DNA from: a virus
Reading direction: 5' to 3' (one strand)
Length of the DNA stretch: 29,779 bases
Virus genome (UHGV): UHGV-1366609
The position numbers were made by a program, and so were the translations under genes. A model generated the notes under the pieces. It did no database searches and was not told the origin of the DNA. It saw nothing but the letters and a program-made list of their open reading frames with translations. This document shows, piece after piece, positions 3,621-28,604 of the stretch (position 1 is its first letter; each line of letters opens with the position of its first letter).

Positions 3621-5731
3621 CCTGCGTTAAGCTCCTGCCATTCAGCCAACTGGGCCGGGGTGATTCCATTGGGGGCGTTGATGTAGGTATCGCCCCACGA
3701 TTTACGGTTATCAACGGCGGTTTTGCTGTCGGTTTTAACCTGACTCATCAGGCCGCCGCGTGGGATGTCTGCATTAATTCGGTTCCCCGTCAGCACTGAC
3801 GGGCTGTTCAGCTTCGACGAACCTGCAGCACTGTCAGGAATGACCGCGTTTGCCGGAACGGCAGCCGCTGCCGGTGGCGAAACGGTTTTCAGGTCGATGT
3901 TGACGCCGGGGATCTTGTTTAGCTTCTCCACAATCCAGTTATAGGTAGACGCAAAGGTATTTTTGAGGACGTCAAAAAGTTTGCTGAATACCCCGCCGAT
4001 GGTTTGTGCGAACCCTTCAAAGGTGGCAAGCGGGGAAAGACCGGCAAAGAAATCAACCACCACGGCCCAGCCGTCAGTGATGGACTGCCAGACCTGCGCA
4101 AACACCTGGCCCACCTGTTCAGCGACCGACATCACCCAGGCAAAAGCCGACGTATCCATGATTGCTGTCGCAAGTTCTTCCCAGTGGGTGATGACGTACC
4201 AGACCCCCACGGCCAGAAGCGCCAGCCCGGCAATGATCAGGGTGATCGGACTCATCAGGAGTTGCATTGCCGCCCCGGCAAACATGGTCGCCGCACCGTA
4301 AACCCGCATGGCAATGGCCCCGGCCTTTAACGCGATATTCCATGCAGCAAGCGCGATGCGGCAGACGCCCGTCCACAGCGCCAGTAATTTTGACTGGATC
4401 CACAATGCAGCCAGACCGATGCGCGTCGTCAGCAGGGACGGACGCAACAGGTTGAGCGTCCATAACAGTAGTTTCCATGCGCCGCCCAGTACCTTAGCGA
4501 TTGCAGCCAGCCCCGTCATGGTGAAGCCAAAGACCCCCATCACGATATTGACCGCCGCCCCGGCCAGCCCGAATGACAACACGCCCAGGGTGATGTACCC
4601 CAGCCAGCGGGCAATATTCGGGAACATATCCAGCCAGCGGGCAAATTTTGTCCCCACGTCGGCAATACGGTTCATCAGCGGTGACAGGATAGGGATCAGC
4701 GTGTTACCAATCGCCGCGCGAATGGCAAAGAATGTCGCTTTGATACGTTCCCACGGCTCGGCCATTCGTTCGGCCATTTCCTGGGCGCGTTTCATCCCGT
4801 CATTTCGGCCCAGTTCGGTGATGCTGCGGTTTAATTTATCCTGCTGACCGTACAGCTTTTTGATAACGTCAGCACCACCACCGAACGCGGCGTCCAGCGC
4901 CTGTTGTGCCTTGACGTTTCCTTCAATGCTCTGCCCGTATTTGCTCTGAAGTTTTTGCAGAATGTCACCCATCGGCAGCATTTTTCCGGTGGCATCGACA
5001 AAGCTCATACCCAGCTTTTCAGCGGCAGCCGGGGCGCTGCGTAAAAACTGCTCGTAGATCCCGCTGGCCTCAGTACCCAGCGTGCGCGAAAGCGTACCCA
5101 GGACGGCGAACTGTTCATCCAGGCTGACGCCAAAGTCAGCACCGGCGCTTTTCGTCCCCTCGATAAGCTCCTGCATGGTCTGCATTTTCACGCCGAAGTT
5201 TTGCACCATGTACGCCGTTTTCCCTGCCAGCTCTTCGGCAAAACGTACATGGCCCAGACTGGACAACTCCGCGTTGAAGCGTGACGCCATCGCGCCGATG
5301 TATTCGCCTGCCTCTTCGCCGCTGGCCTTGACGCCTGCGGCCAGGGTATTGGCCGCGATGGTGACGCGGGGCAGGTCCATATCGGACAGGCCCGCCATTG
5401 CGCCTTTCATCGCATAGCTTGACCGGACCACATCAACGGCCCCTTTGCCGTAGCGCATACTGAATCGCATGGCTTCACCGGACAGACGCTTCAGCGCATC
5501 CTCTGCCACGCCTTTGGAACCCACTTCTGCGAGTGCGGCGTTCATCTCATACGCCGGACCCACCACGCCCGCGATGGACTGCGCCACGCCCCAGACAGCC
5601 GCCGCACCGATCCCAATTTTTGTAAAAGACGCCTGCGATTTTTCGGCAAAGCCGGACAGCGAAGACTGGGCCGTCTTTAATGGCCGCGTCAGCTTATCGA
5701 TCAGGCTCAGGGTAAAATCCAGGTGACTCAT
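3617..5731 (-). CDS. Tail tape measure protein
   Basis: 704 aa, Ala/Gly-rich with helical N-terminal half and a block of hydrophobic segments (residues about 380-520). Lies directly downstream of the frameshifted chaperone gene. Confidence 0.85.
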   Translation of the reverse strand: MSHLDFTLSLIDKLTRPLKTAQSSLSGFAEKSQASFTKIGIGAAAVWGVAQSIAGVVGPAYEMNAALAEVGSKGVAEDALKRLSGEAMRFSMRYGKGAVDVVRSSYAMKGAMAGLSDMDLPRVTIAANTLAAGVKASGEEAGEYIGAMASRFNAELSSLGHVRFAEELAGKTAYMVQNFGVKMQTMQELIEGTKSAGADFGVSLDEQFAVLGTLSRTLGTEASGIYEQFLRSAPAAAEKLGMSFVDATGKMLPMGDILQKLQSKYGQSIEGNVKAQQALDAAFGGGADVIKKLYGQQDKLNRSITELGRNDGMKRAQEMAERMAEPWERIKATFFAIRAAIGNTLIPILSPLMNRIADVGTKFARWLDMFPNIARWLGYITLGVLSFGLAGAAVNIVMGVFGFTMTGLAAIAKVLGGAWKLLLWTLNLLRPSLLTTRIGLAALWIQSKLLALWTGVCRIALAAWNIALKAGAIAMRVYGAATMFAGAAMQLLMSPITLIIAGLALLAVGVWYVITHWEELATAIMDTSAFAWVMSVAEQVGQVFAQVWQSITDGWAVVVDFFAGLSPLATFEGFAQTIGGVFSKLFDVLKNTFASTYNWIVEKLNKIPGVNIDLKTVSPPAAAAVPANAVIPDSAAGSSKLNSPSVLTGNRINADIPRGGLMSQVKTDSKTAVDNRKSWGDTYINAPNGITPAQLAEWQELNAG

Positions 5732-7316: not shown

Positions 7317-7772
7317 TCAGCCTTTCAAATCGCGAGTGTCGCGGGCTGACAGGTACGGCACGCCGTCAATCGCGACAAAGTCCGGGCTTGTCACCATGAA
7401 TTTAATTTTCTTCGTGGTTTTGCTGGCCTCGTTGGGGTTGATGTTGACGATGTCGGACAGCGTCGGAACGCAGCCAAACACCTCGATTTTTTCTTCGTCG
7501 TCCCCCGCATTGGCGTAGAACAAAAAGTCCTTTGCCGGAATGGCCCGCCAGGAACCTGCGGCGCGGGCCACGGCGGTAAACTTTTTAAAGTTCTGGGAAT
7601 CGACTTCGACTTCCACATCCGCCGAAACTGACCCTTTCGTGTGGCCGTTTGGGATGCCACGCGACTGCGCAACCGCGCTGTTATCCGTGATGGTGACGGT
7701 GGCGTTTTCGACGTGAATCATGATGGCGTCGTAGTTCACATCGAACGATCCGCCGCTGATACGTTCAGTCAT
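7317..7772 (-). CDS. Putative tail tube protein
   Basis: 151 aa ORF directly downstream of the sheath-sized gene and upstream of the chaperone/tape-measure block. No resemblance to P2 FII noticed. Confidence 0.5.
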   Translation of the reverse strand: MTERISGGSFDVNYDAIMIHVENATVTITDNSAVAQSRGIPNGHTKGSVSADVEVEVDSQNFKKFTAVARAAGSWRAIPAKDFLFYANAGDDEEKIEVFGCVPTLSDIVNINPNEASKTTKKIKFMVTSPDFVAIDGVPYLSARDTRDLKG

Positions 7773-9616: not shown

Positions 9617-10089
9617 GACGCGTCACCACGCTGGACAATAAATTCCAGTTGCGACGCCTCCCAGATTTCGGGGTTTACGATGTCCCATTTCTTACCTTTG
9701 AAGGGGATCGGCCCTTTTTCCACTTCACGCAGGACCAGCGGATCAACCAGCGGGACAACCACATCCAGAATGCATGACCCTTCGTCGTCGAACTCCGGGT
9801 CCACGGTGGGATCGGCTAACTTCAGCTCGTCGCGCAGCTCGTTGGCGAACTCATCCACCCAGGCCAGCACCAGGGCATAAATCAGCCCCGGCGAATATTT
9901 GCGGTAGGGGAAGTCATCCCACGACAAACGGGCGGTATAAGTCAGCACCCCGATCCGGCGCTGGTTGTTTCCCATCGCTTTGGCGCTGCGTACCAGCTCG
10001 CAATCCTCCATTGAACTGGAAAACATCTGCATGGCATCAGGCGGCAGGTTTGCCGTAATAAACGCCGTCAGGCTTTCAAGCTGGCTCAT
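9613..10089 (-). CDS. Head-tail joining / tail completion protein (R-position), function uncertain
   Basis: 158 aa acidic ORF, ATGA-coupled between the L-like and S-like genes. No specific motif recognised. Confidence 0.35.
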   Translation of the reverse strand: MSQLESLTAFITANLPPDAMQMFSSSMEDCELVRSAKAMGNNQRRIGVLTYTARLSWDDFPYRKYSPGLIYALVLAWVDEFANELRDELKLADPTVDPEFDDEGSCILDVVVPLVDPLVLREVEKGPIPFKGKKWDIVNPEIWEASQLEFIVQRGDAS

Positions 10090-20926: not shown

Positions 20927-21381
20927 CAGAAAGGTACTCCGCCGTCAAAATCACCGACTGGCGACGTCTTGAATGTAAAAGCCGTTCCTGGGCGAAATTT
21001 GCGGGCGTTCTTGAATGATCGAAAAGTGCGCGAGTGCGGGAAGCTATCCCCCGTCATGACATCCATTGCGATTACATCAACCCGAACGGAACCACGCTCC
21101 CGGCGAGTGATAGAGATAACCTTCTCAACTACTGCAAAAACAGAGGTGTCGTGAGGGGCATAAGGTGCGACCGGCGAGACTTGTTGCACTGCCGGACTAT
21201 GTTTCTCAATTAGTGGATCAAGTATCGCGTTAAAGGAAATTAGCAATGTATTAGCCACGTCAGGCCCAGCCAAAACGCCCGCTAACGTCGCATGGGCAAG
21301 CGCAATGGTTTTAGCTTCGTTAAGCGCAGCCAGCACTCCGCGTGTAAATTCGGATTGAGTTGCATCGATACGGGTTGCCAT
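20926..21381 (-). CDS. Hypothetical early protein ending in an SSB-tip-like tail
   Basis: 151 aa; C-terminus ...SPVGDFDGGVPF confirmed from the nucleotides. Coupled to the Dam stop upstream and the 75-aa start downstream. Confidence 0.5.
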   Translation of the reverse strand: MATRIDATQSEFTRGVLAALNEAKTIALAHATLAGVLAGPDVANTLLISFNAILDPLIEKHSPAVQQVSPVAPYAPHDTSVFAVVEKVISITRRERGSVRVDVIAMDVMTGDSFPHSRTFRSFKNARKFRPGTAFTFKTSPVGDFDGGVPF

Positions 21382-22346
21382 TAAAAAGCCTCCACGCCAT
21401 TGGCCGCAGCCGATGCCAGCATTTCGTTGTAGGTCGCGTCCCCCATTACCGGGCCGCAGTCAGGACAACAGCCACCACCGGCACGACCGCAGCCGCTGCA
21501 CACTTTGAGGACGCCGATCACCTCTTTGGCCTTTTCGCGGTTTTTAGTGCTGGCGCTTACCGAACGCTGGACGGCAATTTCCTGGAAGCGGAAGTCTTTG
21601 TAGATCTCGCGAGTCAGCGGGGTGTCGCTGTTAGAAATCACGACAGACGCGCCAGTCTCTCGGTTTGCTTTCAGAAGGGCGGCAACAAGCTGGCGGTGTT
21701 GCTTCTTACCAAATGGGCCAGTGTGGTACTGGGTAAAATTGGCGGTGTCACTTGCAGGCAGGTACGGCGGATCACAGTAAATAACGCTATCAGGGAAAAG
21801 AGGGGCGTTGATGGCGTCTACGAAGTCACTACAAAGAAATAAAGTGCAGGTATCGCGGGCCTTTTCAGAGAACAAGCGGATCTCCACTTCTGGCAAATAC
21901 TGCGTTTCTTTATCCTTCCCCTTTCCGTAAGGGGTGTTGTACTCACCTTTCAGGTTGTAGCGCACAACACCGTTGTAGCCGTGGCGGTTCAGGTACAAAA
22001 AGAACGCGGCGCGGGCGACACTAGTAAAATGGTGGCGCAGGCGGCGACCTTTCGGATGATTGAACATGTCGCGAAGTTTTGCGTAATTTGCGCTGGTATT
22101 GCGGTTCTTAAACAAGTCGCGAGACAGGCTTATCAGTTCGTCAGGGGTGCTTCTGGCAACACGATAAAGGTTAATCAAATCGGGGTTTATATCGCTCAGA
22201 ATGTAGCGACGATAATCTGTATTCAGGAAGACGGAAGCGCCCCCCACAAACGGCTCAACCAGGCATTCACCTTTCGGCAGAATCGGCAGTAATTCAGGCA
22301 TAACGCGGCCTTTACCACCGGGCCATTTAACGAGAGATCGAATCAT
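21381..22346 (-). CDS. dam: Dam-family DNA adenine methyltransferase (likely GATC-specific) with C-terminal Cys-rich extension
   Basis: N-terminus VKWPGGK...LPKGECLVEPFVGGASVFLNTDYRRYILSDINPDLINLY is near-collinear with E. coli Dam as I recall it; motif IV VIYCDPPY. Extra C-terminal CSGCGRAGGGCCPDCG. Confidence 0.85.
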   Translation of the reverse strand: MIRSLVKWPGGKGRVMPELLPILPKGECLVEPFVGGASVFLNTDYRRYILSDINPDLINLYRVARSTPDELISLSRDLFKNRNTSANYAKLRDMFNHPKGRRLRHHFTSVARAAFFLYLNRHGYNGVVRYNLKGEYNTPYGKGKDKETQYLPEVEIRLFSEKARDTCTLFLCSDFVDAINAPLFPDSVIYCDPPYLPASDTANFTQYHTGPFGKKQHRQLVAALLKANRETGASVVISNSDTPLTREIYKDFRFQEIAVQRSVSASTKNREKAKEVIGVLKVCSGCGRAGGGCCPDCGPVMGDATYNEMLASAAANGVEAF

Positions 22347-22416
22347 TTTTACTTTCTCCAGGGTGCAAGAAGCCCGACGCGTTAGCGCCTGTTTCTTTTT
22401 TGTGGGTAGTTAGTTG

Positions 22417-22812
22417 TTAATTGACTGCGTTATCTGGCGCGGGTGGTTTGTCGCGTATCGCCTGAATTTCGGCGCGTGGTGCGGCGTAGTCCTCAAATTC
22501 CCACGGCATTGATGCTGCAAATTCGGAAAGGCGCTTAATGCCCATCAAAAGGCACGTTTGTTCCTTTTCGGTTAGATTTTCGTAAGTGCAACCCAACTGT
22601 TTGGCGGTCAGCTTCGGCATTCCGGCTATGTATCTGGACGCATCGTTTGCCAGGATGAAAATCACCTTTTTGCAGGCATCATCCAGGCGGTTAAAACGAG
22701 TTGCAGTATCGTTCACGCGTGAGGCGTTCAAACTGGCTTGCAGCCGCGCCCGTTGCTCTAAGAACTGGCGGCGGCCTGGCTGTTGTCCTGTTTTATCCAT
22801 CAACATAACCAC
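22417..22812 (-). CDS. Hypothetical early protein (position of P2 B / orf80-83 block)
   Basis: 131 aa ORF in the early leftward operon; no motif recognised. Confidence 0.4.
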   Translation of the reverse strand: MVMLMDKTGQQPGRRQFLEQRARLQASLNASRVNDTATRFNRLDDACKKVIFILANDASRYIAGMPKLTAKQLGCTYENLTEKEQTCLLMGIKRLSEFAASMPWEFEDYAAPRAEIQAIRDKPPAPDNAVN

Positions 22813-22822
22813 CTCGCCCGAG

Positions 22823-23065
22823 CTACGCGAAGATGCCCATTAAGCGGGAAAACCAGCGGCGCTTGTTACGCGGGCGTGACATAAACGGTAAACGGCAGTT
22901 TTTAACAAATTGAACATCTGCCGCTTTAGGCTGGAAGAAACGCCCGTCCGGGGTTTCAATCCAGCCGCGTTGATGCTGACGGTGGGTGATCTGCTGGCCG
23001 TGGGTGAGCAGGCTGGCGAGTGATGGGCATTGTGATAAATCCATAATAAGCCTCGCTACTATCAA
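22823..23065 (-). CDS. Hypothetical small early protein
   Basis: 80 aa ORF, ATGA-coupled to the upstream Cox-position gene. Confidence 0.35.
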   Translation of the reverse strand: MIVARLIMDLSQCPSLASLLTHGQQITHRQHQRGWIETPDGRFFQPKAADVQFVKNCRLPFMSRPRNKRRWFSRLMGIFA

Positions 23066-23529
23066 GCTGTACGTGAAACAGAAAGAGGATTGTGTTGGGT
23101 GCGCTTATGCGTCTGGTGATTGTTACCAGTTACGCGGCGATATGTTTTCTTGTCGCGCATCAGACGATCGATGTAGTGCTTTTCTTCTGGGGTAATAAGT
23201 GCGCGGCAGTGTGCTACGGCGGCCCAGTATTCTTGCAGCATGATGAAACGCTTAGGACGTTTTGAACCCGGCATCCCTTCGCGGTGGACTGGTACTTGAG
23301 CACGATCCATCAGGTTGCGAACTGACTTAAGGGTCCGGCCTGTCAGGTAGGCAAATTCAACAGGTGTAACGAAAATCTGCTTTTGCAGTTCTTCGGTGTT
23401 CATATCGCGAATAGCGTTAGCTTGCGAATCAGTCATTTTGCAGATGCGTGCTATACGGGCGTTATCTAACGGGAACTGGCGAAAATGTGGAGATCCCGCC
23501 GTTAAATTAATTTCTCGATTTTGTGTCAT
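23062..23529 (-). CDS. Early regulatory protein in the Cox/Apl position, putative DNA-binding
   Basis: First gene of the leftward early operon, divergent from the C repressor. Segment FVTPVEFAYLTGRTLKSVRNLMDRAQVPV looks like an excisionase/Cox-type helix-turn-helix; at 155 aa it is longer than P2 Cox, so the start or identity is uncertain. Confidence 0.4.
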   Translation of the reverse strand: MTQNREINLTAGSPHFRQFPLDNARIARICKMTDSQANAIRDMNTEELQKQIFVTPVEFAYLTGRTLKSVRNLMDRAQVPVHREGMPGSKRPKRFIMLQEYWAAVAHCRALITPEEKHYIDRLMRDKKTYRRVTGNNHQTHKRTQHNPLSVSRTA

Positions 23530-23547
23530 TTGCTAGACTCCATAGAT

Positions 23548-23586
23548 TGAGGCTAATTGAGGCTTGTTAAGTACTAATTAGCCTCG
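23548..23586. promoter_or_regulatory. Candidate immunity operator: 10-mer GAGGCTAATT in direct and inverted copies between C and the Cox-position gene
   Basis: GAGGCTAATT at 23549..23558, GAGGCT again at 23559..23564, inverted copy AATTAGCCTC at 23576..23585; CTAATT recurs at 23628..23633. Confidence 0.5.
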
Positions 23587-23652
23587 TGGGGCACATCGGG
23601 CAAATGTTGTCTATGTGCTAATTTCTGGTGATTGTGATGAGATCTTATCATT

Positions 23653-23952
23653 ATGTCAATGACGCAAGGCGAAAAACTAGCTCTTATTCGCGACTCTGAA
23701 CGCTTAACTAAAAGGCAAATGTCTGATTTAACAGGTTTAAATTATTCAAGTTATGGCGGTTATGAGCGAGATAAAACAAAAATGACACTTGAAGCAGCTG
23801 TATGTGTTTTCGGACACCCTCGTTTTCATAAGTATCAAGACTGGTTTATGTATGACCGTACGGACGAAAGCCGGGGGCAAATAGCACCGGCTCTCGCGCA
23901 CAATGGGCCATACAAAATGCAGTCAGACCCCTCAGAGAAACAGACTGGTTAA
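23653..23952 (+). CDS. C: Immunity repressor, P2 C-like
   Basis: 99 aa. MSMTQGEKLALIRDSERLTKRQMSDLTG and the C-terminal GQIAPALAH closely parallel P2 C as I recall it, including identical length. Confidence 0.85.
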   Translation: MSMTQGEKLALIRDSERLTKRQMSDLTGLNYSSYGGYERDKTKMTLEAAVCVFGHPRFHKYQDWFMYDRTDESRGQIAPALAHNGPYKMQSDPSEKQTG

Positions 23953-24021
23953 CATTATATAAACATTACATTTTCACTATTTGTTACCAGGATAGTGATC
24001 TGACTGTTGGAGGGTTTTCTT

Positions 24022-25032
24022 ATGTCCGTTAAGAAACTCGAAGATGGTCGCTATGAAGTGGATGTCAGGCCGCGCGGGCGCGACGGAAAGCGCATACGGC
24101 GGAAGTTTGAGAGAAAGGCGGATGCACACGCATTTGAGCGCAGCATCATCGCTAAGTATCAGAACCATGATTTTTTAAATAGACCGGCCGATAAGCGGAA
24201 ACTAAGCGAATTTATTGCTTTATGGTGGCAGTTAATCGGACGGAATAAGAGCTACGCAAACCGCAGGCTTAGTGCAGTTAACTGCATTTGCCAGGATATG
24301 GGGGATCCCATGATTTACCAGATTGATGCGCGATGTCTTATTGATTACCGGGCATATAGGCTGGAGCAAGGGATCAAGGCTTCAACGATAAATCATGACC
24401 TGTTTGCACTTAGTGGTGTGTTTAAAGCTATGGCCGAAATTGATGAGTTTCACGGTGAAAACCCAGTAACAGCAATTTCAGCGCTGAAAGAGCCAAAAAC
24501 GGAAATGTCGTATTTCACTGAGTCGGAAGTAAACCGGCTGTTATCCCTGTGCTCAGGTGATTACTACCGCATCGCCGTTCTGCTGCTTGCTACTGGTGCT
24601 CGATGGGGGGAAGCCTACCAGCTTAAAGCGGAAAACATTGTCGGTAACAGGGTGATGTTTACAATCACTAAAAACGGAGATCGGCGGGTGGTCCCCATAT
24701 CTGACGACATTGCAAAGATAGTGAAACATCAGGAATCGGGAAGGCTGTTCCGCGTGAGCTATAAAACCTTCCGTCTACGCATGAAAGAAGCAAAGCCCAA
24801 TCTTCCAGATGGGCAAGCCGCGCACGCGCTACGTCATACGTTCGCCACGCACTTCATGATTAAGGGCGGAAATATTATCGCGTTACAACGAATTCTTGGT
24901 CATTCCGATATATCTCAGACGATGACCTATGCTCACTTCGCACCGGACTATTTACTGGATGCGGTGAGTTATAATCCCCTTAGTGGAATGTCCACATTGT
25001 GTCCACACTCTGGAGGCAATGCGGGGGTTTAG
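24022..25032 (+). CDS. int: Tyrosine integrase, P2 Int-like
   Basis: Start at ATG 24022 (MSVKKLEDGRYEVDVRP...) with GGAGGG 7 nt upstream. LATGARWGEA, HALRHTFATHF and LGHSDISQTMTYAHF carry the R...HxxR...Y catalytic pattern and are near-collinear with P2 Int. Confidence 0.9.
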   Translation: MSVKKLEDGRYEVDVRPRGRDGKRIRRKFERKADAHAFERSIIAKYQNHDFLNRPADKRKLSEFIALWWQLIGRNKSYANRRLSAVNCICQDMGDPMIYQIDARCLIDYRAYRLEQGIKASTINHDLFALSGVFKAMAEIDEFHGENPVTAISALKEPKTEMSYFTESEVNRLLSLCSGDYYRIAVLLLATGARWGEAYQLKAENIVGNRVMFTITKNGDRRVVPISDDIAKIVKHQESGRLFRVSYKTFRLRMKEAKPNLPDGQAAHALRHTFATHFMIKGGNIIALQRILGHSDISQTMTYAHFAPDYLLDAVSYNPLSGMSTLCPHSGGNAGV

Positions 25033-25158
25033 AGGGTTAGTTAAGTCTGTTATATACTGAATCAGCGCAGTGCGTTACGGCGCTGCGCTATTTGAAAACC
25101 TCCCAGCAAGGGGAAGGTCAAGTGTTTAAATTGCTGATTGAAAGGGATTTTTAAAATC

Positions 25159-25199
25159 AGCGTCCACATAGCGTCCACACTTCGATAAAAGTGTCCACA
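25159..25199. repeat. Three direct GTCCACA repeats (reverse complement TGTGGAC), candidate integrase arm-type sites of attP
   Basis: AGCGTCCACA at 25159..25168 and 25170..25179 (11-bp period), GTGTCCACA at 25191..25199; the reverse complements read TGTGGACG, TGTGGACG and TGTGGACA. Confidence 0.5.
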
Positions 25200-25212
25200 A
25201 TACAAAGACAAA

Positions 25213-25238
25213 GCCTCGCCACCCGCGGGGCTTTTTTT
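25213..25238 (+). terminator. GC-rich hairpin followed by T7 run (terminator-like; possibly part of the att region)
   Basis: GCCTCGCCACCCGCGGGGC followed by TTTTTTT; the stem is imperfect. Confidence 0.4.
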
Positions 25239-25310
25239 CTTTTACTGAATGCTAGTAATCGTTAGACTTCATGTGACAAAAAATAACCTTTCGACAAGGA
25301 GTGTTTTTAA

Positions 25311-25820
25311 ATGGCAATGACAAAATGTAAAGAGTGCAAAAAAGAGGTATCAGCAAAGGCTAAGACTTGCCCTCATTGTGGAGTAAAGGATCCTGGCTTT
25401 AGCGCCAAAGATGCAATGGGTGGTTTTGTTTTTCTGTTAATCCTTGGGGCAATTGGGTACTGGTATTTCAGTGGTGATGAAGAGGCAACGGCCAAAGATG
25501 AGCCAAAAGTTAAGGTGTGTGCTAAGAATGATGGGCAGTGTATTTTTGAAGCCCATTTAGTTGATGCTTTGGTAGCCTGTAAAAGCCCGATTGAGAAAAC
25601 TTCAAAGTATGATTTCGAATGGACCAATGGTGCATTTGAAAATATCTTTAGTCGGTACATCAACAAACCGGAACAGAACCAGATTGTTTATGTGGGCGAT
25701 AAGCTGAAATTTACGAATGGGTTTAACGCCAAAGTGAACATGACGTATTCATGCACCCTTGACACAAAAACAAACAAAATGATCGATTATGAAGTGACTA
25801 AAGGGCGCTTGCCCGATTGA
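25311..25820 (+). CDS. AT-rich cargo (moron) gene: zinc-ribbon, single transmembrane helix, Cys-containing C-terminal domain; function unknown
   Basis: 169 aa. CKEC-x10-CPHC ribbon, hydrophobic GGFVFLLILGAIGYWYF, then about 115 aa with four Cys. Own AAGGAG 9 nt upstream of the ATG; composition visibly AT-richer than neighbouring phage genes. Confidence 0.6.
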   Translation: MAMTKCKECKKEVSAKAKTCPHCGVKDPGFSAKDAMGGFVFLLILGAIGYWYFSGDEEATAKDEPKVKVCAKNDGQCIFEAHLVDALVACKSPIEKTSKYDFEWTNGAFENIFSRYINKPEQNQIVYVGDKLKFTNGFNAKVNMTYSCTLDTKTNKMIDYEVTKGRLPD

Positions 25821-26013
25821 TCCTTCCTCGCATTATTTTGCAAAAACTATAGCTGCATCATTTCTCCCCAAAGCCTTGCCGCGCAAGGCTTCACGCATTT
25901 TTCAACGAAACTTTCCAGCCTACCGCCGACCACATTTGATCGTGACGGAATCTAAAACGATCCTTTTAAAAACATCATGTTATCCAGTCGGTTAGCGACT
26001 GGCGGCGCGGTGA

Positions 26014-26125
26014 CTTTTGCAAAGTGCTGCAAATCTTTGCGCAGCGTGCAAACGCCCGCAGGATGCAAAAGCCCAGCAGCGGCGCAGGCTGGCGGGGGGC
26101 TTTGCACAAAATTTCTTTTGCAAAA
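26014..26125. repeat. Array of TGCAAA half-sites including two palindromes TTTTGCAAA(G/A) about 100 bp apart, in a 510-bp non-coding gap
   Basis: CTTTTGCAAAG at 26014..26024 and CTTTTGCAAAA at 26115..26125, plus TGCAAA at about 26028, 26048, 26064 and TTTGCACAAAA at 26101. Confidence 0.4.
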
Positions 26126-26329
26126 TTTTTATGATCCAAACTGCGCAGGCGGGTGCGGTGTAGCGCCGTTTCCGTCCTGGATCCGCTTCCGTCTGCCTGC
26201 TGTCGCTTGCGCTGTGGGTCGCTGTTGAACGAACGAAAGAAAGGCCGCACGGTGGCGACCTTTAATGTTTGCGCCTGCTGTGGCGCGTTCTGTGGTGTCT
26301 GGTGAGGTGTGCGGTTATACCGCTTTTTG

Positions 26330-28054
26330 TCAGGCTATCAGGGGACCGTATTTGCTTTTTAATGTGCCGGTTTTAGTGGCCGTTGCGGTGAACTGTGCAG
26401 CCTGCCCGCTGGCCCCTGTATTGGGGTGAGTATGTGACGCGGCAGTCTCTGCCAGCTCCCTCACCACGTCCAGGGTGTCGGTGAGTAGTGTCAGGACGTT
26501 AATCTCTTCGCTTCCCAGTTTTACCACCGGGGCAATCAGTTGTTGCGCCTGGGCCACACTTCGGCGGATGCCGCTGATTTTTTCAGTCAGTGCGCCGCTG
26601 ACGTTTGACGTAACATTCCCTTTCACGTCGTCTGTAACATCGCCCGCGACGTCCCGTTTTACGTTCCGGCCAACACTGACGGAATTGTCCTTGCTGCAGG
26701 TTACTGTCAGGTTGCCGGATGTGCCGATACTGTAATCACCCTCGCTGATATGGACCACCGCCCCGGCCAGAAGTGTGGCCGTGCCAAGCACGGTTGTTTT
26801 ATCCGTTGCCTGGACCGTAGTTTCACGGACAACCACTTTGCGGATCTCTTCGTCGGTGGTGACTTCGCGCATCATGGAGTTTTCGCGGATTGTCTGGTCC
26901 GTCTGGCGTTCCCAGTCTCCGGCAACCGTCACGCGCTGCGATACACCATCGCGCTGTTGCTGCAACTGCTCGCCGGGTTTAACCGCTGGCAGGTTATGAC
27001 CCTCCGCCATAATCTGGCGCACAAAGGGCTTATCCTGCCGCCCCTCAGTGAACCCAATTTCAACCAGCGTGCCAGGGGGCGGAAACTGGAACATTCCCGA
27101 CTCGCTGCCCGCCATTGGCACAGGTAGCGGAACGGCAGAATAAACCGGCGTATTTGCGGCTGGCTTGCCGTCTTCGTCAAGCAGCTGGAGATCCACGGCG
27201 TAGCGCGGGCGGAATGGATCGGCAATATCCCCCCCGGAAACATCCTCGCTTGGTGCTTCCACCCTGGCGAACTTTGGAAGATGCAGGCCGCTTGCCAGCT
27301 CCGGGAATGCGTTTTCAATCTGCCGCTGAATTGGTGATTTTTGCAATGGCTGGCCGTTGGCTTTGTTGCGGGGCTGCCATGTGATTGCCATGTCGTCGTT
27401 ATTTAGCCGAACCTGGTTCAGCCGCTGGCCGTTCACTTCCGCACCCGGTCGCAGGCTCTGAATCATTGGCACAACCATTGAATTTCCGCCTGCCGATTCC
27501 TGGCTAAATTCATGCGGGATCTCCACTGGTTTACCCGCAAAAAGACTGTGCTCCGCAGCGCCGACGAAGACATCCCCGTCCGGCAGCTGATACCAAAGAT
27601 AATCCGTCACTGAAAATGCACGGCCCAGACTGGCAAGAAGCTGATAGCCCGTGCCGCTGTGCGTAAAGTGGGGGATTGGTTTATCTGCATAAGCAGCGCC
27701 GACCGGCGTTGTGACGGTAAGCCCGCTTTGCTCACTTATCCAGTCAGTAATCTGGCGCAGCGTTGGATGCTGGAAAGAACACGGCCACAATTTGTCAAAG
27801 ATGCCAACCAGCTCACGCACGAATAATCGGCATGTTCCATTATCAGCAGGCTGTGACCGTTCAACGTACCCGGTAAACCAGCGCAGGACCAGACCATCAT
27901 AGCCAACATCGATCCGCACCATCTTGCCGGTGTAATCTGTCTCTGTCCCTGCCGTAATAAACCCCCGACCGCACGCGTTCAGCTCCAGCACGATATTGCA
28001 GTCAATCAGATGGACCGGATCAGAGGAAAGGTACAGGCGTTTAATTGGTTTCAT
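26330..28054 (-). CDS. Baseplate central hub/spike protein (gpV/gp5-like OB-fold and His-rich apex fused to a long N-terminal domain)
   Basis: 574 aa. MFQFPPPGTLVEIGFTEGRQDKPFV resembles the gpV/gp5 OB-fold core; C-terminal ASHTHPNTGASG resembles the HxH spike-apex motif of P2 gpV. The first about 330 aa are hub-sized. Confidence 0.55.
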   Translation of the reverse strand: MKPIKRLYLSSDPVHLIDCNIVLELNACGRGFITAGTETDYTGKMVRIDVGYDGLVLRWFTGYVERSQPADNGTCRLFVRELVGIFDKLWPCSFQHPTLRQITDWISEQSGLTVTTPVGAAYADKPIPHFTHSGTGYQLLASLGRAFSVTDYLWYQLPDGDVFVGAAEHSLFAGKPVEIPHEFSQESAGGNSMVVPMIQSLRPGAEVNGQRLNQVRLNNDDMAITWQPRNKANGQPLQKSPIQRQIENAFPELASGLHLPKFARVEAPSEDVSGGDIADPFRPRYAVDLQLLDEDGKPAANTPVYSAVPLPVPMAGSESGMFQFPPPGTLVEIGFTEGRQDKPFVRQIMAEGHNLPAVKPGEQLQQQRDGVSQRVTVAGDWERQTDQTIRENSMMREVTTDEEIRKVVVRETTVQATDKTTVLGTATLLAGAVVHISEGDYSIGTSGNLTVTCSKDNSVSVGRNVKRDVAGDVTDDVKGNVTSNVSGALTEKISGIRRSVAQAQQLIAPVVKLGSEEINVLTLLTDTLDVVRELAETAASHTHPNTGASGQAAQFTATATKTGTLKSKYGPLIA

Positions 28055-28061
28055 CGTTTAA

Positions 28062-28604
28062 TTACCCCAGCGCATCGTTGACCGGCTTTAAGACCTTTTC
28101 TTCAAACCAGCTCATTTTGTCGGCTGGCTCATCAGCACCGGCAGCCGGACCCGCGCCCTTTACCCCTGTTTGCTTGGTGCTGGCCGTCGCGTTGCCTTTT
28201 CGGGCCTGTCGTTTTTCCGGGACGCTGCCTTTTTCACGCAGGGTGAAACTTACCTGCCAGGCAAGGCGATCCTCCTGCGGTACGGCATCAATCTGACCGG
28301 TAAACGTGGCTTCACGAAGGTTGATAGCCGTCGCCGTCGCATTGGCTACGCGGTACTTTTTCAGTGCGCCGCTGGCTTCGGTCGCGGATGCCAGCTGGAA
28401 AAGCCGCTGTAAGACGGCTTCGTCGTCGAATGTCACCAGACCCGACACGCGCAGCTCTTTGGCCTTGATACCCTGTTCAGCATTGGCCGTGCTCGATGTC
28501 TGGCCCGACTGGTCTTTCTCCTGAAACTGCATGGAAGGTGAAACCAGCATGTTCTGCATGGCGATCCCTTCACCATCAAGCGCGAGTAGTGCGGTCTGGC
28601 TCAT
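28062..28604 (-). CDS. Hypothetical tail-module protein (start uncertain)
   Basis: 180 aa ORF between the hub/spike and the 247-aa ORF, overlapping the latter by 29 nt; no motif recognised. Confidence 0.4.
   Translation of the reverse strand: MSQTALLALDGEGIAMQNMLVSPSMQFQEKDQSGQTSSTANAEQGIKAKELRVSGLVTFDDEAVLQRLFQLASATEASGALKKYRVANATATAINLREATFTGQIDAVPQEDRLAWQVSFTLREKGSVPEKRQARKGNATASTKQTGVKGAGPAAGADEPADKMSWFEEKVLKPVNDALG

Follow-up and report, generated by a model that had tools for sequence, protein, structure and literature searches.

The viral sequence UHGV-1366609 (29,779 nucleotides; hereafter the window, meaning this whole stretch of DNA) covers nearly all of a Peduoviridae genome in its circular (attP) form, and just to the right of its phage attachment site lies a 169-codon open reading frame (ORF169; 25311–25820, plus strand) that very probably encodes an accessory inner-membrane protein of the lysogenic state. 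ORF169 occupies a variable accessory and defense hotspot, and its product is predicted to consist of a cytoplasmic zinc ribbon, a single transmembrane helix, and an unnamed periplasmic domain; it represents an uncharacterized family in the well-known category of prophage morons and hotspot cargo. By analogy with other phage systems we tentatively favor a role as a lysogen-expressed, envelope-acting barrier against incoming phages, with superinfection exclusion in the strict sense being a somewhat more doubtful proposition. A preliminary description of this stretch, made from the sequence alone, had pictured an AT-rich moron with this architecture in an att-proximal slot. Its views of the cargo status, the slot, and the protein architecture hold up well. 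The AT-richness that it noted is real but is no sign of recent acquisition, and the lysogenic-conversion or superinfection-exclusion role that it proposed stands as a hypothesis.

ORF169 is a real gene under purifying selection. The 169-residue frame is present with an ATG start, and the strong ribosome-binding site previously attributed to it can be read directly from the sequence as AAGGAG (25296–25301, plus strand), 9 nt before the ATG. By our own arithmetic the chance of a 169-codon open frame at 41% GC is ~2e-5, and a protein search returned 99 homologues, mostly full length. Comparison with a 77%-identical orthologue (locus L010) gives nonsynonymous and synonymous differences per site (pN and pS) of 0.109 and 0.816, the latter saturated, and a pN/pS of ~0.13. 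Beyond the lack of annotation there is nothing to recommend the alternative of a chance frame or a decaying gene without function, and that idea is effectively refuted by the conservation, with hundreds of full-length homologues sharing invariant motifs, as well as by a confidently modeled domain and the canonical ribosome-binding site. An antisense 97-codon frame with a TTG start (25373–25666) is taken to be spurious.

The closest isolated relatives of the window phage are the Salmonella phages SI7, SW3, and SW5 of the genus Irrigatiovirus (~89% identity in the integrase and baseplate genes), and the phage is Irrigatiovirus-like (Peduoviridae; HP1/P2 family). Three integrated prophages encoding an identical protein (L004, L005, and L007) match the window at 99% identity from coordinate 25096 rightwards and carry host DNA (copA) to the left of it. 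Alignment of attP with the L004 attL and the Escherichia coli K-12 attB defines a 27-nt common core (AAACCTCCCAGCAAGGGGAAGGTCAAG; 25096–25122), confirming the placement of ORF169, which starts at 25311, next to attP. After integration ORF169 is the first prophage gene, ~190 nt inside attL, as seen in L004 and L005. Homology to relatives breaks at attP on the left and resumes on the right at 25878 in SI7, or at 25935 in 19 E. coli prophages.

This slot is a variable accessory and defense hotspot. In SI7 it contains two small hypothetical genes and no ORF169, and the gene is also missing from a Citrobacter prophage (L025) despite a 98%-identical baseplate protein; because these very close relatives do without it, ORF169 is dispensable cargo. 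A scan of genome contigs with the baseplate protein yielded eight loci with conserved flanks (L025–L032), none of which contains ORF169. Their slots hold a retron-type reverse transcriptase (L030, 10016–10774; PADLOC RT_VI, 2e-24), an AbiJ-like/Abi_C protein (L031, 10030–10839), lipobox proteins (L025, 9572–9931, and L032, 9551–9799; one of the two a DUF333 protein), or nothing. Equivalent slots carry AbiH in E. coli prophages located at yegQ (L002/L003, 2846–3811) and a DUF2806 protein plus an unannotated 265-residue protein at another locus (L014, 7512–9652). The suggestion that this is an att-proximal slot for accessory genes is thus well founded, as is the description of ORF169 as moron-type cargo, given its position between conserved phage genes, its absence from SI7 and L025–L032, and a composition unlike that of the tail genes.

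On its right-hand side the slot is flanked by a conserved GC-rich spacer (25935–26329, or from 25878 in SI7) that extends to the 3′ end of the baseplate gene and is 95.5% identical in the 19 E. coli prophages and 91% identical in SI7. This spacer holds the tail-operon terminator (26263–26240, minus strand) and may serve as a recombination flank of the hotspot. Its ~400 nt are conserved although the adjoining cargo differs, and in SI7 a 54-residue hypothetical gene (gp25) is annotated there. Defense hotspots of P2-like phages have been described at old/tin and at Z/fun, with minor ones near int and att (PMC9122126, PMC13586616). Like these, the ORF169 slot has variable AT-rich cargo between conserved genes, including Abi genes and retrons, but it lies on the int-distal side of attP, separating attP from the baseplate operon, in an Irrigatiovirus/HP1-like layout. 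The ORF169 family is unmentioned in both of these papers, and the word 'zinc' is absent from the main text of the former.

The composition of ORF169 is distinctive, with a GC content of 0.412 (0.418 at third codon positions) compared with 0.537 for the window; the tail genes to the right of the slot have GC contents of 0.56–0.58 (0.61–0.64 at third positions). Just 1.06% of all 510-nt segments are as AT-rich, and the global GC minimum (0.394) starts at 25231. The left-hand neighbors are likewise below average (0.43 for the C repressor gene and 0.48 for int). Five further loci show homologue and flank GC contents of 0.42 and 0.56, 0.39 and 0.55, 0.42 and 0.57, 0.46 and 0.59, and 0.57 and 0.63, respectively. 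The moron-type composition noted earlier is therefore real as a difference from the flanking genes, but it does not indicate recent acquisition, as homologues, distant ones included, are consistently AT-richer than the sequence around them.

Orthologues occupy the same slot in phages integrated at other host sites, with overall identities of 47–80%. They include an 80%-identical version at yegQ (L010–L013; Kluyvera and others), a 49%-identical version in Citrobacter that is followed by DUF2806 and a further gene, and one in Serratia at 53–54%. Pairing these values (first-sequence identities from the 35-homologue alignment described below) with those of the accompanying baseplate proteins gives 80 and 82%, 49 and 64%, and 54 and 53%. 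Because the divergence of ORF169 roughly tracks that of the baseplate protein, the gene looks like an old accessory gene of this lineage that has been repeatedly lost or replaced, and in view of this and of the low GC content common to distant homologues we reject AT-richness as a sign of recent horizontal acquisition.

The architecture of the ORF169 protein agrees with that previously described (a CxxC-x10-CxxC ribbon, one transmembrane segment, and a C-terminal domain with four cysteines), as judged from the sequence, Kyte-Doolittle hydropathy, and an AlphaFold2 model. Residues 1–29 (25311–25397) form a basic zinc ribbon predicted to be cytoplasmic, followed by the transmembrane helix (residues 35–53; 25413–25469), an acidic disordered linker of variable length (residues 54–68; 25470–25514), and an unnamed alpha+beta domain (residues 69–169; 25515–25817) predicted to be periplasmic. 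Cysteines are at positions 6, 9, 20, and 23 in the ribbon and 70, 77, 90, and 148 in the C-terminal domain. The sole hydrophobic segment is the helix, for which the best 19-residue Kyte-Doolittle window spans residues 35–53 (mean 1.76) and AlphaFold2 models residues 32–53 as helical. The first 35 residues include eight lysines and arginines versus four aspartates and glutamates. Taken together, the basic N-terminus, the acidic linker, a zinc site that needs a reducing cytoplasm, and the four conserved C-terminal cysteines point to a bitopic inner-membrane protein oriented N-in/C-out, in which the periplasmic domain probably carries two disulfides.

Conservation is unevenly distributed among these parts. 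In an alignment of 35 homologues (34 full length, plus P0085, which is divergent past the transmembrane helix) the mean pairwise identity is 79% in the zinc ribbon, 26% in the helix, 21% in the linker, and 45% in the C-terminal domain. Invariant positions are M1, C6, K7, C9, S14, A17, C20, P21, C23, G24, P28, W104, and D130, and C77, C90, C148, G129, N136, A140, and Y146 are nearly so; C70 occurs in every full-length member of the alignment but is spread over adjacent columns. The word-index search behind this alignment may favor conserved N-termini, yet pN/pS still shows that the ribbon is constrained at the protein level (pN 0.09 at the 5′ end, with synonymous sites saturated). The same values lead us to reject, for this lineage, the idea that the conserved 5′ end anchors recombination at the DNA level when ectodomains are exchanged. 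The ribbon itself is a generic one rather than a curated Pfam member, judging by bit scores under the gathering cut-offs for Zn_ribbon_3 (PF13248; 22.1 against 27), UPF0547 (PF10571; 22.5 against 29), and DZR (PF12773; 20.3 against 27.3). An HxxxCxxC anti-sigma motif is absent, and zf-HC2 is not among the Pfam matches of ORF169 (E≤0.01) or of the relatives P0067, P0076, and P0037 (E≤1).

The N-terminal module (MAMTKCKECKKEVS..AK.CPHCGV plus the helix) occurs in fusion with six or more unrelated C-terminal domains, among them DUF4875 (P0080/P0082), Sel1 (P0084), a DUF2511-like domain (P0091), and others (P0081, P0087–P0089, and P0096). Two such loci were examined (L021 and L023, encoding P0081 and P0082), and both are cargo slots of P2-like prophages: P0081 is encoded after the tail module, and P0082, the DUF4875 protein, adjoins the portal gene at the classical place of the P2 old/tin hotspot. 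A module that recurs on unrelated ectodomains in such slots, with the ribbon as its most conserved region, would suit a transmembrane sensor-effector of the abortive-infection or signaling type, in which the periplasmic domain would detect a phage component or envelope damage and the zinc ribbon would be the output, either by binding a cytoplasmic partner or nucleic acid or by driving an oligomerization that depolarizes the membrane. The other occupants of the slot, being mostly of abortive-infection type (AbiH, AbiJ, and the retron reverse transcriptase), fit with this as well. We nonetheless regard it as rather unlikely, since the cytoplasmic part is only ~30 residues long and has no recognizable effector domain, there is no conserved adjoining partner gene, and PADLOC gives no match. 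A broader proposal, which we hold to be speculative and improbable, is that the zinc ribbon and helix are a common chassis of modular single-protein envelope sentinels in the Peduoviridae. The interchangeable periplasmic heads (the unnamed domain, DUF4875, Sel1, and the DUF2511-like domain) would then each recognize a different invader or envelope insult, and the invariant cytoplasmic ribbon would relay the signal to a conserved intracellular target; were this so, the unnamed C-terminal domain would count as a periplasmic recognition domain that is both new and widespread, with no fewer than 1,956 representatives.

The C-terminal domain is the best-defined part of the AlphaFold2 model, with a predicted local distance difference test (pLDDT) score above 90, compared with a mean of 79.5 for the whole protein and less than 50 at residues 54–66 of the linker. 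Helices 75–81 and 83–96 pack on strands 102–104, 115–119, 124–135, 141–151, and 157–164, and the conserved motifs are EWTDG, GDK, and NGF(N/G)A. The modeled fold resembles NTF2/cystatin-like domains, only generically. With Foldseek, the PDB gave no significant match and BFVD a single marginal one without a name, and a sequence-profile search of the PDB gave no matches. Bitopic proteins of the VirB8, TraM, and DotI type also have an NTF2-like periplasmic domain, but the structural score is weak and generic, sequence similarity is lacking, and there are no type IV secretion system genes nearby.

Among sequence families, ORF169 matches phrog_13160 (E 7.2e-23; residues 10–156 against positions 1–128 of the 139 in the profile), which has no functional annotation, and its PHROGs matches are confined to families of unknown function. 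An NCBIfam scan of ORF169 gave no match, Pfam and NCBIfam searches with the C-terminal domain and ten diverse family members found accessory domains only, and PADLOC-DB 2.0 contains no defense family matching ORF169 at E values up to 1. Literature searches on zinc ribbons, prophages, and exclusion, on DUF4875, and on Irrigatiovirus found nothing on this family. A HMMER profile of the C-terminal domain nonetheless retrieves 1,956 cluster representatives (clustered at 50% identity), 1,354 of them at E≤1e-10, which makes the domain a potential new Pfam family. It is always C-terminal and tethered to the membrane, in proteins of 134–491 residues; of the top 147 representatives, about 65% carry a plain anchor and about 28% the zinc ribbon and helix, and other partners (within P0100–P0246) are SH3_3, which is typical of the periplasm, DUF4875, TPR/GYF, and a tandem duplication.

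The occurrence of the domain with SH3_3, TPR, and DUF4875 in proteins that have no zinc ribbon can be accommodated by a lysogenic-conversion function unrelated to phage, in which the periplasmic domain would bind or inhibit an enzyme or toxin (a bacteriocin, a type VI secretion effector, or a lysozyme-type hydrolase) or modulate an envelope pathway. The combination of a membrane anchor with a small disulfide-bonded alpha/beta domain also brings to mind the colicin M immunity protein. The zinc-ribbon subfamily is, however, tightly tied to lysogeny and defense slots of the Peduoviridae, which argues for a phage-related selective pressure, and we consider such a conversion function unlikely.

The distribution of the family ties it to lysogeny modules. 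A scan of IMG/VR found relatives in 271 viral contigs, and the locus layout was determined for the best 80 of these. In 22 of the 80 the gene is convergent with the baseplate gene as it is in the window (13 of these are at a contig end), in 34 it is convergent with gpD, and in 28, all of them other P2-like phages, a CI/helix-turn-helix repressor gene lies 31–250 nt upstream on the same strand. In P2-like prophages of Marinobacter, Pseudomonas aeruginosa, and Cupriavidus the homologue is the last gene of a rightward operon led by the repressor and is convergent with gpD, and it appears to be transcribed from that repressor operon. A homologue in a Pseudomonas myovirus-type prophage is an opposite-strand insertion within the tail module, and in E. 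coli GF131 a relative directly follows a tRNA-Ile, at the border of what remains of a 186-like prophage; complete E. coli genomes searched at the DNA level returned a single weak match. In the loci examined, zinc-ribbon members are thus predominantly beside attP or the immunity repressor, and otherwise within a tail module or bordering the remains of a prophage.

The position of homologues behind the immunity repressor, on the same strand, in 28 of these 80 IMG/VR loci makes it likely that the family is expressed in lysogens, and this probable co-transcription is the best, though an indirect, argument for it. That association, together with the shared orientation of ORF169 with the C repressor gene and int, could also point to a membrane-anchored modulator of the phage's own lysogeny, acting in its establishment, maintenance, or induction. 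Such a role is hard to reconcile with the absence of the gene from L025 and SI7, and in this lineage integration separates ORF169 from C and int, and ORF169 is flanked by terminators of its own; we judge it to be highly unlikely.

The sequence signals around ORF169 describe a self-contained unit composed of a terminator, a candidate promoter, the ribosome-binding site, the coding sequence, and a hairpin. Upstream is an intrinsic terminator (25210–25241, plus strand) with a 10-bp stem (hairpin 25210–25234; -16.7 kcal/mol, z -4.45) and a run of seven Ts, which shields the cargo gene from transcription arriving from int or from attL; an equivalent hairpin is likewise conserved ahead of the L010 and L015 orthologues. 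It is followed by TTTACT (25241–25246), a 16-nt spacer, and TAGACT (25263–25268), a candidate sigma-70 promoter (25241–25268, plus strand) that would be a weak one. Both hexamers and their spacing are identical in L010 and L011 despite divergence of the spacer and of the remaining sequence in this region. Downstream of the coding sequence, a perfect 9-bp hairpin (25871–25891, plus strand; -13 kcal/mol, z -3.2) probably marks the end of the cargo transcription unit and the right-hand edge of the slot. A further stable hairpin right after the int stop codon (25063–25089, plus strand; -20.9 kcal/mol, z -4.5) is probably either the int terminator or a structure of the P arm.

Within this phage family, the nearest precedent for such a function is Glo of the Vibrio phage K139 (Peduoviridae, Longwoodvirus), a small extracytoplasmic protein of a temperate phage of the P2/HP1 family; the ORF169 product is predicted to resemble it in size and in facing the envelope. 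Glo is encoded in a lysogenic operon beside int and attP (cI-orf2-glo-int-attP), and its record is annotated 'periplasmic protein; involved in phage exclusion'. There are clear differences, in that Glo has a cleavable signal peptide and neither a zinc ribbon nor a membrane anchor, and its gene is between the repressor and int rather than beyond attP. Profile comparison of the two detects no homology (hhalign probability 0.05%).

Better-known examples from other phages are Imm and Sp of T4, gp15 of HK97, and SieA of P22, small single-gene envelope proteins that act once the phage has adsorbed and keep its DNA from entering; gp15 of HK97 is itself a moron, with a single transmembrane helix and its C-terminus in the periplasm. 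None of these four is known to have a cytoplasmic zinc ribbon, and we found no sequence or fold relationship between them and ORF169 (PHROGs, BFVD). Exclusion proteins of the Sie2009 and Ltp type, from lactococcal and streptococcal temperate phages, are extracellular domains tethered to the membrane; their genes belong to the lysogeny module, near int and the repressor, and are expressed in lysogens. They differ from ORF169 in having Gram-positive hosts, a lipoprotein or signal anchor, and unrelated folds and sequences; the Ltp proteins are reviewed in PMC3952083.

The envelope barrier that we favor would work as follows. In the lysogen, ORF169, as the first gene at attL, would probably be transcribed from its own weak promoter. 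The basic 29-residue zinc ribbon would stay in the cytoplasm, with one helix crossing the membrane and the acidic flexible linker tethering the compact alpha+beta domain in the periplasm, so as to form a single-protein barrier at the interface between the periplasm and the inner membrane. The ectodomain could bind either a component of the infecting phage (tail tip, tape measure, or ejected proteins) or a host inner-membrane factor that the phage needs, DNA entry would be blocked, and superinfection exclusion would result. It is the analogy with Glo, T4 Imm and Sp, and HK97 gp15 that leads us to favor a block of DNA entry.

Several observations weigh against this role. The protein has no similarity to characterized exclusion or defense proteins (PADLOC, PHROGs, BFVD, and the Glo comparison), and a periplasmic blocker leaves unexplained why the cytoplasmic ribbon should be the most conserved part (79% versus 45% for the ectodomain) under constraint at the protein level. 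The C-terminal domain also occurs in many architectures that have no zinc ribbon, and in at least one case (P0343) the surrounding locus is not obviously that of a phage, suggesting that its periplasmic role may be more general. The 50,697 deposited phage records include only one full-length homologue, in a Citexvirus fragment. A consensus scan found no sigma-70 promoter upstream of ORF169, and the candidate described above agrees with the consensus at just 8 of 12 positions.

In Proteobacteria, P2-like prophages rank with the most common ones, and new immune systems have been discovered in their cargo slots before. Members of the ORF169 family are now named 'hypothetical' or 'zinc ribbon domain-containing', and their main domain has no Pfam, NCBIfam, or PADLOC model, yet the family is recurrent. 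A membrane moron beside attP is in itself unsurprising; the lead rests on the breadth of the family, its fixed placement by repressors and att sites across the Peduoviridae, the modular zinc-ribbon anchor, and the unnamed domain. ORF169 is thereby a candidate for a new envelope-level exclusion or defense protein and makes a case for a new domain family; should it confer no phage phenotype, it would be an ordinary moron of unknown function.

The attP core differs from the host site by one mismatch, at position 25102, and its counterpart in E. coli K-12 is upstream of the copA start; the matching host stretch is found in 5422 of 5426 E. coli genomes. We take this host counterpart to be the CueR dyad/operator together with the -35 region of the copA promoter, and because the core spans both, attL appears to rebuild an intact copA promoter. 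The integration point is ~44 nt upstream of the copA start codon, and counterparts of the core are at 9786–9812 in L004 and in the copA-glsA intergenic region of E. coli K-12 (L037). Relatives in Erwinia and Rahnella (L027 and L028) have a copA-like gene just past the slot. A link between the four periplasmic cysteines and this copper-related integration site was considered and rejected in view of the orthologues at unrelated att sites.

Candidate arm-type integrase sites are present on both sides of the core as GTCCACA repeats identified by pattern search, with two in the P arm within the 3′ end of int (24990–25007, plus strand; starts at 24990 and 25001) and three in the P′ arm (25162–25199, plus strand; starts at 25162, 25173, and 25193). 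There are seven occurrences of this sequence in the whole window, five of which are clustered around attP, and similar repeats (tgtccaca/tgaccaca) are present upstream of the orthologue in L010 and L015.

The local gene order consists of the C-type repressor gene (23653–23952, plus strand) upstream of int (24007–25032, plus strand), both in the same orientation as ORF169, and a tail/baseplate operon on the opposite strand that includes a phrog_2258 baseplate protein gene (26330–28054) and a gene for an HP1_ORF34 family protein (28062–28604). A metagenome scaffold in ENA (L006; 29,834 nt) is identical to the window. The window contains no tRNAs, and a scan of 22500–26500 against Rfam gave one sub-threshold chance match only.

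To the left of the repressor gene, a 155-residue protein (23062–23529, minus strand) takes the place of the Cox-like excisionase/repressor of SI7. Pfam yields no match to this protein and PHROGs only a weak one (phrog_11919, 2.9e-4), and for this reason the regulator of the lytic switch may be of a different type from that of SI7. The early leftward operon (L006 coordinates 5389–5616 and 7513–7734; the early region is at approximately 21000–23000 in the window) provides further accessory functions of the phage, encoding a ParE_like protein (PF24732), a homologue of the cell-division inhibitor Phage_186_Fil, and two D12-class DNA methyltransferases.

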